A stretch of 64,000 nt of DNA from Escherichia coli (lineage in GTDB: Bacteria; Pseudomonadota; Gammaproteobacteria; Enterobacterales; Enterobacteriaceae). A program made the translations under genes and the position numbers. The notes under the pieces are model-generated. The model was not told the DNA's origin. It worked only from the letters and a program-made list of their open reading frames with translations, and searched no databases. The stretch lies in NCBI RefSeq assembly GCF_003018235.1, contig NZ_CP027437.1, one strand, 5' to 3'. Within the stretch, counting starts at the first letter, position 1. Each line of letters starts with the position of its first letter. Below, piece after piece: positions 3,556-12,450 of the stretch.

Positions 3556-3715
3556 ACTATATTAGTTACAACATCCTATGTGCCTTAACCATTAACGGGT
3601 GCCATATGCCACACCTGTATATGTTGTAAGCTTGTAGGTAATTTGTAAGTAGTGTCTTGAGAATGTGATCGTAATCACGTTTAATAGGGCGACTTTTCCA
3701 AGCCTGAAGATAACC

Positions 3716-4633: not shown

Positions 4634-5392
4634 TTAATCCGTACGCCGGGCAACAATAAACAGACGCGGAAATGCCAGCAGTATCTCTCCGTTCTCTTGC
4701 AGTGGATACTGCTCTTCCAGCATCTGATGGTAGCGCGTAAGAAAATGCTGCTGTTCGCTCTCGGTCAGATCCTGTAACCACGGACGTAATCCGGTGGCGG
4801 TCACCCAATCGATAATCGCCTGGTGCGACGGCATCTGGTGATAGTAGGTGGTTCGCCAGATATCGACCTCACATCCGGCTTCGCTCAAAATATCGTAGTA
4901 AGCATGAACGCCAGCCAGCGGCTCACGCCCGCGATCCGGGTAGTTTTGTTCCCAGGCAACTTCGCGCATGAGCACATGGGTCGGCTCTAGCCAGTTATCT
5001 GGCATCTGTACTGCCAACACACCCTGCGGATTAAGTAAAGAAACCAGATGAGGGAACAATTCGTAGTGGTCGGGCAGCCATTGCAGTGAGGCATTAGCAA
5101 AAATCAGATCGAGTGCCTGTTCCGGTTGCCAGTTGCGGATGTCTGCTTCCACGAACTGGCAGTCTGGCAAAGCACTGCGCGCTTCAGCAATCATCGCCGG
5201 AGACGAGTCGATGCCTGTTATCCTGGCCGCAGGCCAACGTTGATGCAGCAGGGCGGTGCTGTTACCTGGGCCACAGCCAAGATCGGCAACGTATTCGATA
5301 TTTTCCAGCGGCACTCTGGCAAGCAGCTCCACCGCCGGACGCGATCGTTCAGCGGCAAAGTGCAGATATAAAGAGGGGTTCCAGTCAGACAT
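4634..5392 (-). CDS. tam: Trans-aconitate 2-methyltransferase
   Basis: 252-aa ORF, SAM-MTase motif [10 protein letters not shown]; located directly downstream of lsrG on the same strand. Confidence 0.95.
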
Positions 5393-5448: not shown

Positions 5449-5739
5449 TCACGGCATCAACCCATTGAACAGACGTTTTTTACGCGGCCCGGTCATTAAA
5501 GATTCCAGTTTCGCGACACAGGTTTTGTAGTGGGGCGTGGTTTTATGGAACGCCACTGCGTCTTCATCTTTATAGGCTTCGTAGATAAAAAAGCGCGAAT
5601 TCACTTCCGGGTCCTGTAAGACATCGAAGCGCAAATTGCCTTCTTCCTGTACCGAGCCCAGGTGGTTCTGGCGAAAAACTTCGATAAACTCGTCAACCTT
5701 GTCTTCATGAACGTTAATTTCAACCAGTGTGACGTGCAT
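5449..5739 (-). CDS. lsrG: (4S)-4-hydroxy-5-phosphonooxypentane-2,3-dione isomerase (AI-2 degradation)
   Basis: 96-aa ABM-fold ORF at the end of the lsr operon. Confidence 0.9.
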
Positions 5740-5762
5740 AATTCTTCTCCTTAATTCCGCAG

Positions 5763-6638
5763 TTACTGTTTTTCACTCAGATAGAGTTCATATGCCCGAT
5801 CAGCCGTTTCGTTATGGTGTACCACCGCCTGTACGGCTTTCATCATCGCCACCGGATGGTCAGACTGGAAAATATTACGCCCCATATCCACACCAGAAGC
5901 GCCCTGATCGATAGCCTGCCAGCACATTTCCAGCGCCTCGCGCTCCGGTAATTTTTTACCGCCAGCAATAACAATGGGTACCGGACATCCGGCAACAATC
6001 CGTTCAAAACCTTTTTCGACATAATAGGTTTTGATAATTTGCGCCCCCATTTCAGCGGCGATTCGAGTCGCGAGCGAGAAATAACGCTGATCGCGCACCA
6101 TATCTTTGCCCACGCCAGTCACGGCCATGGTCGGCATTCCCACTTTCATTCCGGCATCGATCAGCTGAATAATATTTTTGATCGATTGATGTTCATATTC
6201 GCTGCCGATATAAACCTGCGCCGCCACCGCGCAACTGTTCAGGCGCACGGCGTCATCCATCGATAACGCCACGGCTTCATTACTTAATTCCGCCAGAATA
6301 GAGTTCGCACCTGACGCCCGCAGTACCACCGGCTTATTGGTTGCAGGGGGGACTACGCTGCGCAAAATGCCGCGCGTACACATTAATACATCGGCATGTT
6401 CAAACAGCGGGGCGATATTTATATCAATGCGTTCAAGTCCGGTAGTCGGCCCCTGAAAATAACCATGGTCAAAGGCCAGCATCACGGTTTTACCCGTTTT
6501 CGGATTAAATATCCGTGATAAGCGTGACTGCATTCCCCAATCCAGCGCACCGCAACCTTTCAGGGTAAAAGGGATATTTTGTTGCGGTTGATCGGTACGA
6601 AAATCTTTACCATCTTTAATATCGTCTAAATCTGCCAT
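5763..6638 (-). CDS. lsrF: 3-hydroxy-5-phosphonooxypentane-2,4-dione thiolase (aldolase-like)
   Basis: 291-aa ORF, class I aldolase-like; operon context. Confidence 0.9.
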
Positions 6639-6664
6639 AACGTACTCCGGTTAAGTAATGCACA

Positions 6665-7687
6665 TCAGAAATCGTATTTGCCGATATTCTCTTTGTTGAA
6701 TATCACGCGCTCCGGTAACAGTACGATGCCATTACCATCCGCTTCGTAGTCATAGCCCTGAACGCTGTTTGGCGAGACTTCCACCTGACCTACGCCCTGG
6801 ATATCCAGCTTGTCGCCCGTTTTCATTGATCCTTTTTTCAATAATGCATCCGCGACATAAACTGAAATTTTGCCTTGCTGAACCACATCCCACAGGCCAA
6901 ATTCTTTCACCGTGCCGCGCTCTACATACGGGCGCATCACATTTGGCGTACTGAATCCGACAATCGCAACTTTGTCATTTTTCAGGTTTTCTGCGGCTTG
7001 TGCGGCAGCGGGCAGGGCGTTGGCATCGGGGGCGATAATGGCGTCGAGATCGCTATACGCTTTTAATATTCCTTCTGCGGTTTGTAATGATTTAGTGGCA
7101 TCGTTATAGCCAAACTGCGTAGTGACAATTTCCCAGCCAGGATGCTCTTTGGCGATTTTCGCTTTCGCTTCTTTCACCCACTGGTTTTGGTCCGTAACGG
7201 TGGGGCTTGAGTAGAAAAACGCGACTTTGGCTTTGTCTTTATTCACCTGACGCGCCGCCATATCCACCAACATACCTCCCAACTGGGCGGGCGTTCCCTG
7301 ATTAATGTAGTAAGAGCGGCACTCCGGTTTGGTATCAGAGTCCCAGGTCAGCACTCTCACACCACGTTGCATGGCGCGTTTCAGTGCCGGACACAAGCCA
7401 TCAGGCGAAACCGCAGAAACGATAATGGCGTTATACCCCTGATTGACGAAGTTATTAATCAACTGTACCTGACCAGAAACACTGGGTTCTGTCGGCCCGT
7501 CGTAGGTCACATCAACGCCCAGCTCTTTACCCGCTTGTTGTGCGCCGTTGCCACCGCTGGTAAAAAATCCTACGCCAACCAGTTTGGGAATAAATGCAAT
7601 ACGCTCTGCCGCCTGCACATTCATAGAGATTACGGCAATGCCAAGCGCGCTAAGTAAGGCGATTTTCTTAAAGCGATGAAGTGTCAT
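6665..7687 (-). CDS. lsrB: AI-2 periplasmic binding protein
   Basis: 340-aa ORF with signal peptide, sugar-binding-protein fold; lsr operon context. Confidence 0.9.
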
Positions 7688-7698
7688 GAAGATATCCT

Positions 7699-8691
7699 TT
7701 ATGGCAATGGGTTATTGGCCCGACGCGCCAGCCACTCTTTAATTTGCTGGCGATGCAGGCTAACGGAACGACCTACGACAACGACGATAAGTAGCGCACC
7801 GGAAAGGGCGCTGGACACCTGATTTGGCACTCCTGCCATTTGCAAACCTTGTTGCAAATATCCCACTAATAAAACCGCAATGGCGGTGCCGATAATGGAA
7901 CCAGAACCACCATAAATATTGGCACCGCCGAGCACTACGGCGGTGATGGCGGGCATCAGAAACGACGCACCGAGATCGGAACGTGCTGAACCAAAATACG
8001 ATACCAGCAGCACAGCGGCGACCGCAGACGCCAGCCCCGTCATGGCATAGAGCGCACATAAGGTGCGGTTAACTGGAATCGCGCTATAAACCGCCACACG
8101 CGGGCTTTGCCCAATTAAAAACACGTTACGTCCGGCATGGGTTTTATGCAGCCAGAGCCAGAAAACGAGGAGACATATCAGGAAGATAATCAGCGGAACG
8201 GGGAGTCCCAGTACATCCAGGTTAGCGAAATCTGTAAACGCCATCGGGAATCCACCAATACCTTCGTACCCCGTCGCTCCGGCCATCCCGGAAAGCAGCA
8301 GGGCGCTTCCGGCAAACAGATACAGCGTGCCAAGCGTAATCACCAGCGGGTTAACTTTGGTATAGATAATTAATCCGGCGTTGATCAGCCCGCACAATGC
8401 GCCGAGCAGTAAGGTCAGGAGAATCGCCAGCGGCATCGGCACACGACTTTGAAACAGTACGCCCAATGCAATGGCGCAGAGGCCGATAGTCGAACCAAAC
8501 GAAATATCGATCCCACCACTGACAATCACCATCGTCAGCGGTAGGGCGACAATGCCAATGCAGATAAAGTCACTGGTGCTGAACAGCAACATATTGAGAT
8601 CTAACATCCGCGGGTTAATTGCACCAAATGCTACAATCTCAATAACGAGCAGTGCGGCAAGAGCCAGTTCCCAACCGTAGCGAATACGCAT
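7699..8691 (-). CDS. lsrD: AI-2 ABC transporter permease
   Basis: 330-aa polytopic permease; 1-nt overlap with lsrC. Confidence 0.9.
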
Positions 8692-9719
8692 TATGCAGCC
8701 TCCCGTTTTTTACCTGACGAAGCGGGTTTAACGGATGGCGGTGGTGTCATAAAGCGGGCATATTTTTGCCGCCGCAGATTACGTTCCAGCGCACAACGCA
8801 GGCGTCCATCAAACACCAGCACCGCCAGCAGCACGAGGCCCGCGATAAAATCGTTCCACCATGCCGGAATGCGCAACAGCACCAGTACACTATCGATCTG
8901 CGTCAGGAACCATGCGCCTAATACCGCACCGATGATCGCGCCGGAACCGCCGAGCAAACTAATGCCGCCCAGCACGCAGGCTGCAATTGCTTTCATCTCC
9001 AGCCCGGTACCGGTCTGGTTGGGGATAAAACCAATCTGCGAAGCAAACACAATTCCCGCCAGTGCCGCCATGCAGCCGTTCAACGAAAATGCCACAATGC
9101 GAATGGCTTCCGTACGAACGCCCAGTTGACGAGCGCCCTGTAAATTATCGCCCGTGACATAAAAACTGCGTCCAAACGCCGTCTTTGCCAGCAGCCAGGC
9201 CATAAATGCCACCAGAATTATCGTCAACCAACCAATCGCGGAAACGCCAAACAGCAGCGGTGCGGAGAGCTGTTTCAGTTCGGCGGGTAACCCTTCAATC
9301 CATTTGCCGCCAGTCCACAGCAACATGATGCCTCTGTACAACCCTAACGTGCCAAGGGTGGCAACAATGGCAGGGATCTTTAGCCACGCGACCAGGACAC
9401 CGTTGAAAAATCCCGCGAGCAAACCAAGCAGTAAAGTCGCGACACAGGCAACAGGTAGTGAATATCCTGCGTTCAGTAACATCCCCAACAGCACCGCGCA
9501 CATTCCGGTAATCGAACCCACTGAAACATCAATATTGCGCGTAAGCATTACCAGCGTCGCGCCCATTGCCAGCAGGATCAGGATTTGCGCGCTGCTATAA
9601 ACCATGGTCAGCGTTTGCACACTTAAATACTGGCGGTCGAGAAAACCGGGTAATACAAACAGCAGCACCACCGCCAGCAGTGCTGTGATTTCACGGTTGT
9701 TCTGAATAAATTTCAGCAT
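8691..9719 (-). CDS. lsrC: AI-2 ABC transporter permease
   Basis: 342-aa polytopic permease; overlaps lsrA by 7 nt. Confidence 0.9.
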
Positions 9720-11248
9720 GACGCCTCCTGACGCTGACTATCGCCGAAGGCAACGCGCATAATGGTCTCGACATTAATATCGCGTCCGGTCAGTGCAGAG
9801 TGGGCAATTTCGCCCTGATGCATCACATATACGCGATCTGCCATCAGTTCGATCTCTTCCAGATCAGAGGAGATAAGCAGCACTGCCACATTCTGTGCGG
9901 CGATGCTGCGCAACAGCTGGTAGATATCATTACGGGCTGAGACATCCACGCCGCGCGTCGGCTCATCGACAATCAATACTTGCGGCGAGGCTTCCAGACA
10001 TTTGGCAATCAGGATTTTTTGCTGGTTGCCGCCGGATAAGGTCCGCGCAGCTTGTTCCGGTTGGTTAAATTTAATATTCAGCGCCCGACGATAACGTTCC
10101 AGTGTGGCGCTATCTTTCGCGGTTTTCGCCCAGAATCCACGAAGGTTATGAGTAAGGGCGCAGACGTTCCAGGCCAGCGAAGCATCGAGATTCAGTCCGG
10201 ATGACTGGCGATCTTCCGGCAGATAAACCAGACCGCGCAGTAAACGTTCTCCAGTGGATAATTTATTGATCTCTTTACCATTCAGCATAATGCGTCCGCC
10301 ACGCAAAGTACGCAGACCATAGAGCGTCTCGGCCAGTTCTGTGCGTCCGGCCCCCACCAGCCCAGCCAGACCCAGAATTTCTCCGGCATTAAGCGTCAGG
10401 CTGACATTCATAAAACCTTCGCCGGTCAGGTTTTCCAGTGTCAGCACCGGCGTTCCGGCGGCATGTTGTGGGCGGTTGCTAGGTAACTCCAGCCATAATT
10501 TTTGGCTGGCAGAGAGCGATTTTTCCCGTAGCGCTGGCGTGATGGCCTGAATAATGTCGTCGGTAGACAGTTCGCTGGTTTTGCCGCTTAAGGCGATAGT
10601 TCCGTCGCGCATCACGCTAATCCGATCGGCAATCTGGCGAATTTCCGGCAGCTTATGCGAGATAAAAACAATACCCACGCCAGTAGCAAGCAGCTCTTGC
10701 AAGCGAGTAAACAAGCGTTCGGTTTCCGCAGGGGTAAGCGAGGCGGTAGGTTCATCGAGGATCAGAATCCGCGAGTCGCGCATCAGCCCGCGGAGGATTT
10801 CCACCATTTGGCGATCGGCGACATCCAGAGATCCTGCCAGACTATGCAGATCAAACTGGCAGCCCAGCGCCGCCAGCAAGTTCTTCATTTTCTGCATGGA
10901 GAGCTGTTTTTTTGCCAGCCCAAACAGGATGTTTTCTTTTATCGACAGGCTTGGGAAAAGCAGCGGTTCCTGGGGAACGAGATAAATACCCAGCTGATGA
11001 GCATGAACTGGCGTTAATCTGGCGTAGTAGTTGCCCCCAATCTCCAGCGTACCGCTATCAGCAGGGGTAATACCGGCAATAATCTTCATTAACGTCGATT
11101 TACCGGCACCATTGCCGCCGAGCAGGGCGTGGACCTCCCCCTGATGCAACGTAAAATCGATGCCTTTCAGGACATTGACCCCTGAATACTGTTTATAAAC
11201 CGAGCGGGCGCAAAGTAGCGGTAACGCGCGGGTATCACTCGTTTGCAT
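9713..11248 (-). CDS. lsrA: AI-2 ABC transporter ATP-binding protein (duplicated ATPase)
   Basis: 511-aa ORF with two Walker A motifs (GGNGAGKST; second cassette). Confidence 0.95.
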
Positions 11249-11412
11249 ATTTCCCCCGTTCAGTTTTGCAGGTGAGTTTTGAACAAATGTATTTCTGCTT
11301 TTAATTTGTTCATAACCTTAGGTGGACATTGCACATATTTCCGACGAATAGATCACAATTTATGCTATTTTGATTTTCACGGTTGCGTTTGTTCATGCTC
11401 GTAGAGTCAAAC

Positions 11413-11428
11413 TGTGGTTGCCATCACA
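11413..11428. promoter_or_regulatory. Putative CRP site in the lsrR/lsrA divergent promoter region
   Basis: TGTGG-ttgcca-TCACA matches TGTGA-N6-TCACA; the lsr operon is known to be cAMP-CRP dependent. Exact site is inferred. Confidence 0.5.
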
Positions 11429-11496
11429 GATATAAATGCGCAAGAACTGAACAATTGCATTAAAGATTTAAGTATGTTCAAAGTGAAGAATGAATT

Positions 11497-12450
11497 ATGA
11501 CAATCAACGATTCGGTAATTTCAGAACAGGGAATGTGTGAAGAAGAACAGGTCGCGCGGATTGCGTGGTTTTACTACCACGACGGGCTGACCCAGAGTGA
11601 GATCAGCGATCGTCTCGGCCTGACCCGTTTGAAAGTGTCGCGATTACTGGAGAAAGGGCATCAATCCGGCATTATTCGCGTACAGATTAATTCTCGCTTT
11701 GAAGGCTGTCTGGAATATGAAACACAATTACGTCGTCAGTTTTCGCTGCAACATGTCCGGGTGATCCCAGGGCTTGCGGATGCTGATGTCGGCGGGCGAC
11801 TAGGGATAGGCGCGGCGCATATGTTGATGAGTTTACTTCAACCACAACAGATGCTGGCGATTGGTTTTGGCGAGGCAACCATGAATACGCTGCAACGCTT
11901 AAGTGGTTTTATTTCGTCACAGCAAATTCGACTGGTCACGCTCTCCGGTGGAGTCGGTTCTTATATGACGGGTATCGGGCAGCTTAACGCGGCGTGCAGT
12001 GTGAATATTATTCCGGCTCCGTTGCGGGCATCCTCCGCTGACATTGCCCGTACGCTAAAAAATGAAAATTGCGTCAAAGATGTTCTGCTAGCCGCGCAAG
12101 CAGCGGATGTGGCGATTGTCGGCATTGGGGCTGTGAGTCAACAAGACGACGCAACAATCATTCGCTCCGGCTATATCAGCCAGGGCGAACAGTTAATGAT
12201 TGGTCGAAAAGGGGCTGTTGGCGACATTTTAGGCTACTTTTTTGATGCAAAAGGTGACGTTGTCACGGATATCAAAATACATAACGAACTGATTGGCTTA
12301 CCTTTAAGCGCGCTGAAGACTATTCCCGTCCGGGTTGGCGTGGCAGGGGGAGAAAATAAAGCCGAAGCAATTGCCGCTGCAATGAAAGGCGGTTATATCA
12401 ACGCACTGGTTACCGATCAGGATACTGCAGCGGCGATTTTACGTAGTTAA
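11497..12450 (+). CDS. lsrR: Lsr operon transcriptional repressor (SorC family)
   Basis: 317-aa ORF, N-terminal HTH; divergent from lsrA. Confidence 0.95.

Follow-up and report, generated by a model that had tools for sequence, protein, structure and literature searches.

How are the sites for LsrR and CRP laid out on the short DNA that separates the divergent lsrA and lsrR genes of Escherichia coli, and does an individual copy of this control region depart from the one known in K-12? The lsr switch is a well-studied node of quorum sensing and catabolite control and is also a synthetic-biology part. We analysed the copy found in a 64,000-nt stretch of an E. coli genome (RefSeq assembly GCF_003018235.1, contig NZ_CP027437.1), hereafter the window, in which all coordinates are given. 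A preliminary description had reported a 248-bp AT-rich gap between lsrA and lsrR, a CRP-like site at 11413–11428 and an intact lsrACDBFG-tam and lsrRK arrangement; it regarded the locus as a known quorum-signal uptake system and proposed an alignment to K-12 as its check. We observed that the gap occupies exactly 11249–11496, the genes on its two sides ending at 11248 and beginning at 11497, and that its 248 nt contain 35.5% G+C (0.355 at 11244–11491, against 0.49–0.56 in the flanking intervals and about 52% in the flanks overall). The corresponding region of K-12 MG1655 (b1512/b1513; NC_000913.3 1601242–1601489) is likewise 248 nt long, and the alignment gave 246 identical positions of 248 with no indels, leaving the CRP site and all the published LsrR motifs unchanged. 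The two differences, C here for the K-12 A at 11439 and G for A at 11472, are substitutions; the former falls in a column that is variable across genera. An Rfam scan of 10800–12000 returned one sub-threshold chance match, inside lsrA, and the gap carried no known RNA element.

The genes on both sides are complete. On the minus strand lie tam (trans-aconitate 2-methyltransferase; 4634–5392), lsrG (5449–5739), lsrF (5763–6638), lsrB (6665–7687), lsrD (7699–8691), lsrC (8691–9719) and lsrA (9713–11248), and on the plus strand lsrR (11497–12450) and lsrK (12529–14121). In the open reading frame map the gap is bounded by a 511-aa minus-strand frame, whose start codon ends at 11248, and by a 317-aa plus-strand frame beginning at 11497. 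All nine proteins were full length and matched their NCBIfam equivalog models over the whole extent and above the curated cut-offs, for example tam with 448 bits against 297 (NF002463), LsrR with 620 against 486 (NF011947) and LsrK with 999 against 528 (NF008187). Their lengths equal those in K-12, and the order of the importer and processing genes matches K-12 b1513–b1518. Judged by these protein matches, the products of lsrA to lsrG (5449–11248) are the AI-2 ABC importer and the phospho-AI-2 processing enzymes. In the RefSeq annotations of K-12 and of a genome 100% identical over 11100–11650, the gene order is in both cases tam-lsrGFBDCA divergent from lsrRK; tam is the last gene of the lsrACDBFG-tam string, and the 56-nt gap between lsrG and tam has no minus-strand terminator-like site. 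Further downstream, related genomes carry genes such as hipBA, the yde fimbrial cluster, ydeP, safA and ydeO, and the window is an ordinary segment of the E. coli chromosome. LsrR itself is identical to the K-12 protein at 315 of 317 residues, matches the crystal structures of K-12 LsrR (PDB 4L5I and 4GO1, E about 2e-202) and belongs to the SorC/DeoR subfamily (NCBIfam DeoR model, E 1e-46).

The elements of the gap were delimited by comparison with related loci, which were collected in one scan of species-representative genomes, the Salmonella locus being taken from a plasmid collection. We observed that lsrA is divergent from lsrR in all the 25 enterobacterial loci. In 18 of them, from other Escherichia, Citrobacter, Kluyvera, Superficieibacter, Serratia, Mangrovibacter, Edwardsiella and Izhakiella, the gap is 248–255 nt long. 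An alignment of 14 sequences from about 10 genera (mean identity 69%) displayed a small number of invariant blocks: the lsrA ribosome-binding site, the arms of two LsrR boxes, a GATCAC element and the half-sites of the CRP-like site, with a GTTCA element nearly so. The first of these, at 11253–11258 on the minus strand, reads CGGGGG on the coding strand and CGGAGG in most other genera; its CC.CCG columns are invariant, and its position 5–10 nt before the ATG points to the role of a ribosome-binding site.

The two LsrR boxes emerged from a repeat search as 33-nt elements with perfect inverted arms, TGAACA-N21-TGTTCA, that are 73% identical to each other: O_A on the lsrA side (11280–11312) and O_R on the lsrR side (11448–11480). 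Such an exact layout is expected about 0.004 times per 64 kb (4^-12 per position), and here two copies stand within 248 nt. A position weight matrix trained exclusively on 23 boxes from outside Escherichia scored O_A at 32.4 bits and O_R at 27.1 bits, the best unrelated of the 63,968 positions reaching 0.1. In every Enterobacterales genus of the E. coli-type layout that was aligned, the arms of both boxes are invariant and the spacer is always 21 nt, and the starts of O_A and O_R are 166–168 nt apart. Bacillus subtilis DeoR, a homologue of LsrR (E 2.9e-28), binds as a tetramer to an operator of 39 bp whose outer arms read ATTGAACA...TGTTCAA (PMC11229326). From this homology and the likeness of the operator arms, we infer that each 33-mer would be the operator of one LsrR tetramer. 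Because of the two exact palindromes, the CRP site, the intact genes and the near-identity to K-12, we concluded that the gap is very probably the canonical divergent lsr control region of E. coli in an allele nearly identical to that of K-12. The genes and their order are those of the K-12 lsr locus, so that the view of a known quorum-signal uptake system stands; this control region is already known, and there is nothing surprising in the present copy. The intact switch shows no more than that this strain is probably able to take up AI-2 and to respond to it.

The matrix also pointed to a candidate third LsrR-type box between the two CRP elements, which we call O_M (11363–11395; TGCTATTTTGATTTTCACGGTTGCGTTTGTTCA) and which is degenerate here. 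It is the third-best match of the whole locus of about 5–6 kb in 18 of 18 E. coli-type loci and in Salmonella, and it always starts exactly 83 nt after the start of O_A. Serratia and Salmonella have O_M scores of 24–26 bits (gap position 118 in the Serratia locus, L016; positions 1870–1902 in the Salmonella locus, L030), and Kluyvera, Mangrovibacter and Edwardsiella 16–22 bits; the copy in the window has −5.5 bits and rank 21 of 63,968 positions, its left arm having decayed to TGCTAT. In the right arm, GTTCA (11391–11395), the G, one T, the C and the A are invariant and the other T is kept in at least 90% of the 14 aligned sequences. The starts of O_A, O_M and O_R are 83 and 85 nt apart, about eight helical turns each, and this phasing suggests that bound LsrR may act cooperatively or form a loop. 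The segment may nevertheless be conserved for a reason other than LsrR, for instance as a −35-like TGAACA or an UP element for the lsrA promoter, as a means of keeping the spacing of the CRP dimers, or as the site of another protein, a reading to which we give a little less than an even chance. It agrees with the poor score of the E. coli copy, in which just two inner TG dinucleotides survive besides the right arm, and with two open-access papers, which name just two LsrR boxes (PMC5137460, PMC8487509). The constant third rank by an independently trained matrix, the fixed distance from O_A and the high scores in Serratia and Salmonella argue, on the other hand, for O_M as an LsrR-type box.

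The two CRP elements provide the remaining landmarks. The stronger one, CRPII (11413–11428; TGTGGTTGCCATCACA, centre 11420.5), is the site of the preliminary description, which flagged only the stronger of the two; it differs by one mismatch from TGTGA-N6-TCACA, matching nine of the ten core positions, and is identical in K-12. From the start of its core to that of O_R the distance is 35 nt in every case. The weaker one, CRPI, probably extends over about 11339–11360 on the minus strand (AATTGTGATCTATTCGTCGGAA), with its core running from 11357 to 11342 and its centre at 11349.5. Six of its ten core positions match, five of five (TGTGA) in the left half and one of five in the right half, and it contains the invariant GATCAC (11351–11356), which always starts 71 nt after the start of O_A.

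A scan of 11150–11600 for consensus sigma-70 promoters and for terminators found nothing strong; the absence of a consensus promoter is what weak, activator-dependent promoters would lead one to expect. On the lsrA strand the hexamer from 11320 to 11315 reads TAAGGT, TACCGT, TACTGT or TATGTT according to the genus, so that TAnnnT is kept in all; the corresponding alignment columns (T71, A72 and A66/A67) are invariant, and we take this pattern as the likely signature of a −10 element. The predicted lsrA promoter would then have its −10 at 11315–11320 (minus strand, TAAGGT) and its start near 11308; the CRPI centre is 29.5 nt from this −10 and would stand at −41.5. In the opposite direction, the lsrR promoter would use AACAAT (11450–11455) as its −10 and start near 11462, which would likewise put the centre of CRPII at −41.5. 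Both promoters would accordingly be of CRP class II, with O_R lying across that of lsrR (−14 to +19) and O_A across that of lsrA (−4 to +29). These positions are predicted from geometry and conservation, and no experimental start sites of lsrA or lsrR were found in the open-access text. The class II model would account for the constancy of the spacings and for repression by occlusion.

For lsrR, a class I promoter has also to be weighed, with TGAACA (11448–11453) as the −35, AAGTAT (11470–11475) as the −10, a start near 11482 and CRPII at about −61.5. This is also a canonical position for CRP, and TGAACA agrees with TTGACA at four of six positions at a spacer of 16 nt. However, Citrobacter has CGATAT in place of the candidate −10, with no A at position 2, and the 5′ leader would be only about 15 nt long; we consider a class I arrangement possible but rather unlikely. 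For lsrA, two other −10 candidates were rejected: the wild-type TGCAAT (11333 to 11328) is not conserved across genera, and with AACAAA inside O_A, CRPI would fall at about −50.5, where it would no longer be in helical phase.

The switch very probably works as it does in K-12. cAMP–CRP drives transcription in both directions, and LsrR, a repressor of the SorC/DeoR type, keeps the two promoters closed as long as it is not released by phospho-AI-2, the product of LsrK. Once LsrR is released, the importer LsrACDB and the processing enzymes LsrFG are expressed. O_M may contribute to repression through cooperative binding or looping.

How do these boxes relate to the LsrR sites of the literature? 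As quoted from Xue 2009 in PMC8487509, the p-lsrR-box consists of AACAAT and AAGATTTAA, and the p-lsrA-box of AAAACT and AAAACTGAA. All the four motifs are present in the window at their K-12 positions and unchanged. Those of the p-lsrR-box lie inside O_R (AACAAT at 11450–11455, AAGATTTAA at 11463–11471), and those of the p-lsrA-box occupy 11259–11280 on the minus strand (AAAACTGAA from 11267 to 11259, AAAACT from 11280 to 11275), where they adjoin the O_A palindrome. In the numbering of PMC5137460, which counts from the lsrA start, positions −214 to −208 read TAATGCA and map exactly onto 11456–11462, which confirms the register. In that study, mutations introduced by error-prone PCR into the lsrR-side box raised the output of the lsrA promoter in 12 of the 14 selected clones (PMC5137460); the lsrR-side box therefore contributes to repressing the lsrA promoter 168 nt away.

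It could be argued that LsrR recognises these short AT-rich motifs (AACAAT with AAGATTTAA, and AAAACT with AAAACTGAA), and that the 33-bp palindromes are not its operators. The motifs were defined experimentally (Xue 2009, as quoted in PMC8487509), and on the lsrR side they lie within the palindrome, so that both descriptions overlap there. On the lsrA side, however, conservation of the motif columns does not extend beyond Escherichia, while the arms of the palindrome never vary in the alignment. The GAACA-N21-TGTTC layout also recurs in a Bacillus lsr locus, as AGAACA-N21-TGTTCT, and the palindrome resembles the structurally characterised operator of the homologue DeoR. We thus regard this reading as quite unlikely, and retain the 33-bp palindromes as the probable operators. 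Among the open-access literature we found no relevant paper on inverted repeats bound by LsrR or on looping, and the palindromes may already have been described.

CRPII as a motif is statistically unexceptional in the window, which contains four sites with at most one mismatch to the CRP core and 22 with up to two, compared with a shuffle mean of 28.8. Its placement and conservation are what make it more than chance. In the 14 aligned sequences from about 10 genera, the half-sites TG.GG and TCACAG (11413–11429) are invariant while the 6-nt spacer varies freely. In the literature, CRPI is placed next to TGTGCAAT, which corresponds to 11335–11328 (minus strand) here, and the order of elements is given as p-lsrR-box, CRPII, CRPI and p-lsrA-box (PMC5137460), so that CRPII is the site noted earlier in the window. 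Expression of lsr needs CRP and collapses in a crp deletion, and LsrR represses it (bioRxiv 10.64898/2026.06.09.730415). A recent preprint predicts CRP sites in the lsrA–lsrR gap of about half of the lsr-encoding Enterobacteriaceae genomes. That the 16-mer at 11413–11428 might be a chance match with no regulatory role, as the ordinary number of such sites in the window would allow, is highly improbable in the face of its invariant half-sites, the constant 35-nt offset to O_R, the collapse of expression in the crp deletion and the CRP box marked at the same place in PMC5137460.

The same study reported promoter-up mutations that convert TGTGCAAT into TGTACAAT (8- and 14-fold, in two carrier clones) or into TGTGTAAT (PMC5137460). 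On the lsrA strand (11328–11335), these mutations turn TGCAAT into TACAAT or TGTAAT, each of which matches the −10 consensus at five of six positions. Where PMC5137460 proposes that a CytR site is lost, it may be simpler to suppose that these mutations create a new −10 element.

We then considered the difference from K-12 that falls within an LsrR box. Position 11472, directly 3′ of AAGATTTAA, is position 25 of O_R and the symmetry partner of a conserved T at box position 9. The A of K-12 is present in the 13 other aligned sequences, the window with its G being the sole exception among the 14, and none of the 23 training boxes has G at this position. This G lowers the matrix score of O_R by about 6 bits, to 27.1 from the 33.4 of the K-12-type box, and is predicted to modestly weaken the binding of LsrR. 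The allele is not private to this strain: a 71-nt stretch carrying the G occurred exactly in 478 of 4172 lsr-positive complete E. coli genomes (about 11.5%) and the K-12 version in 3518, which makes it a minority allele. If the prediction is true, repression of lsr would be leakier in about 11.5% of the lsr-positive E. coli genomes.

The full model, in which the LsrR operators are three phased 33-bp palindromes interleaved with two CRP sites and mediating cooperative or looped repression over both class II promoters, with O_M decayed in Escherichia and 11472 G causing leakier repression, is put forward tentatively; as a whole we judge its chance to be well short of even. Palindromic 33-bp boxes, a third box, fixed spacings and a natural variant could sharpen the definition of the LsrR operator. 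The comparative detail leaves the picture of the lsr system unchanged, and these refinements have possibly been published already.

Among the known systems beyond K-12 is the archetypal lsr locus of Salmonella enterica, where lsrA and lsrR are likewise divergent, with a gap of 255 nt. Both TGAACA-N21-TGTTCA boxes are present there, 166 nt apart, and GATCAC and the CRP-like site stand at the same offsets. The central box is nearly intact in Salmonella (TGAATA...TGTTCA, 26 bits), whereas its left arm is lost in E. coli (−5.5 bits); the CRPII core of Salmonella is weaker, with 8 of 10 positions instead of 9. The DeoR operator of B. subtilis (PDB 8R7Y; PMC11229326) has TTGAACA and TGTTCAA as its outer arms, and a single tetramer, built as a dimer of dimers, binds it. 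The arms are 24 nt apart in the DeoR operator and 21 nt in the LsrR boxes. DeoR has a single operator upstream of its promoter (−60 to −21), in contrast to the two or three phased boxes that would overlap two promoters here, and its effector is deoxyribose-5-phosphate, compared with phospho-AI-2 for LsrR.

An AT-rich divergent region, activation by CRP and a pathway-specific repressor with multiple phased operators are also features of araBAD/araC and of deo with CytR and DeoR. For LsrR, looping is no more than suggested by the 83- and 166–168-nt phasing. Unlike regulons of the araBAD/araC or deo type, lsr has a phosphorylated quorum signal as its inducer. The binding data for cAMP–CRP are attributed to Wang 2005. 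CytR is also considered in PMC5137460.

The reach of the operator layout differs among more distant loci. Klebsiella (L031) and Buttiauxella (L020–L026), whose LsrR is about 64–66% identical to that of E. coli, have a second type of control region. Its gap is shorter in Klebsiella (218 nt) and of uncertain length in Buttiauxella, where gene starts are ambiguous. This type combines a perfect O_A with a degenerate box on the lsrR side (CGAACA...GAGTTCA) and a weaker CRP match, and the matrix scan found no central box in it. The alpha-proteobacterial lsr loci of Sinorhizobium and Thalassospira do not have the TGAACA-N21-TGTTCA layout, and the operator model is therefore not universal for LsrR homologues.

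Within E. coli, a 551-nt query across the gap (11100–11650) had matches in 4182 of 5426 complete genomes. The matched features were annotated as lsrR and lsrA, except where the lsrA part alone matched. The lsrA–lsrR junction gave no match in 1244 of the 5426 genomes (about 23%), so that the lsr switch is accessory within the species; a few genomes keep the lsrA side only, such as an O157:H16 strain with 21% coverage. Two lsrR-carrying "plasmids" of 4.8–4.9 Mb in PLSDB (NZ_CP134663.1 and NZ_OL790696.1) are evidently mislabelled E. coli chromosomes.

Two minor observations concern the surroundings of the locus. Downstream of lsrK, an autotransporter gene of the ECSE_1600 family is present as an 1183-aa open reading frame (14651–18202). 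Compared with strain TUM1886, a stretch of about 1.8 kb that covers its 3′ part is missing (at about 18180), and hipBA follows directly; in K-12, the pseudogene yneO occupies the position of this gene. The gap between uxaB and yneE contains a second good CRP-like core, TGTGATCGTAATCACG (3664–3679), which matches 9 of 10 positions and precedes the yneE start annotated in TUM1886 by about 40 nt.
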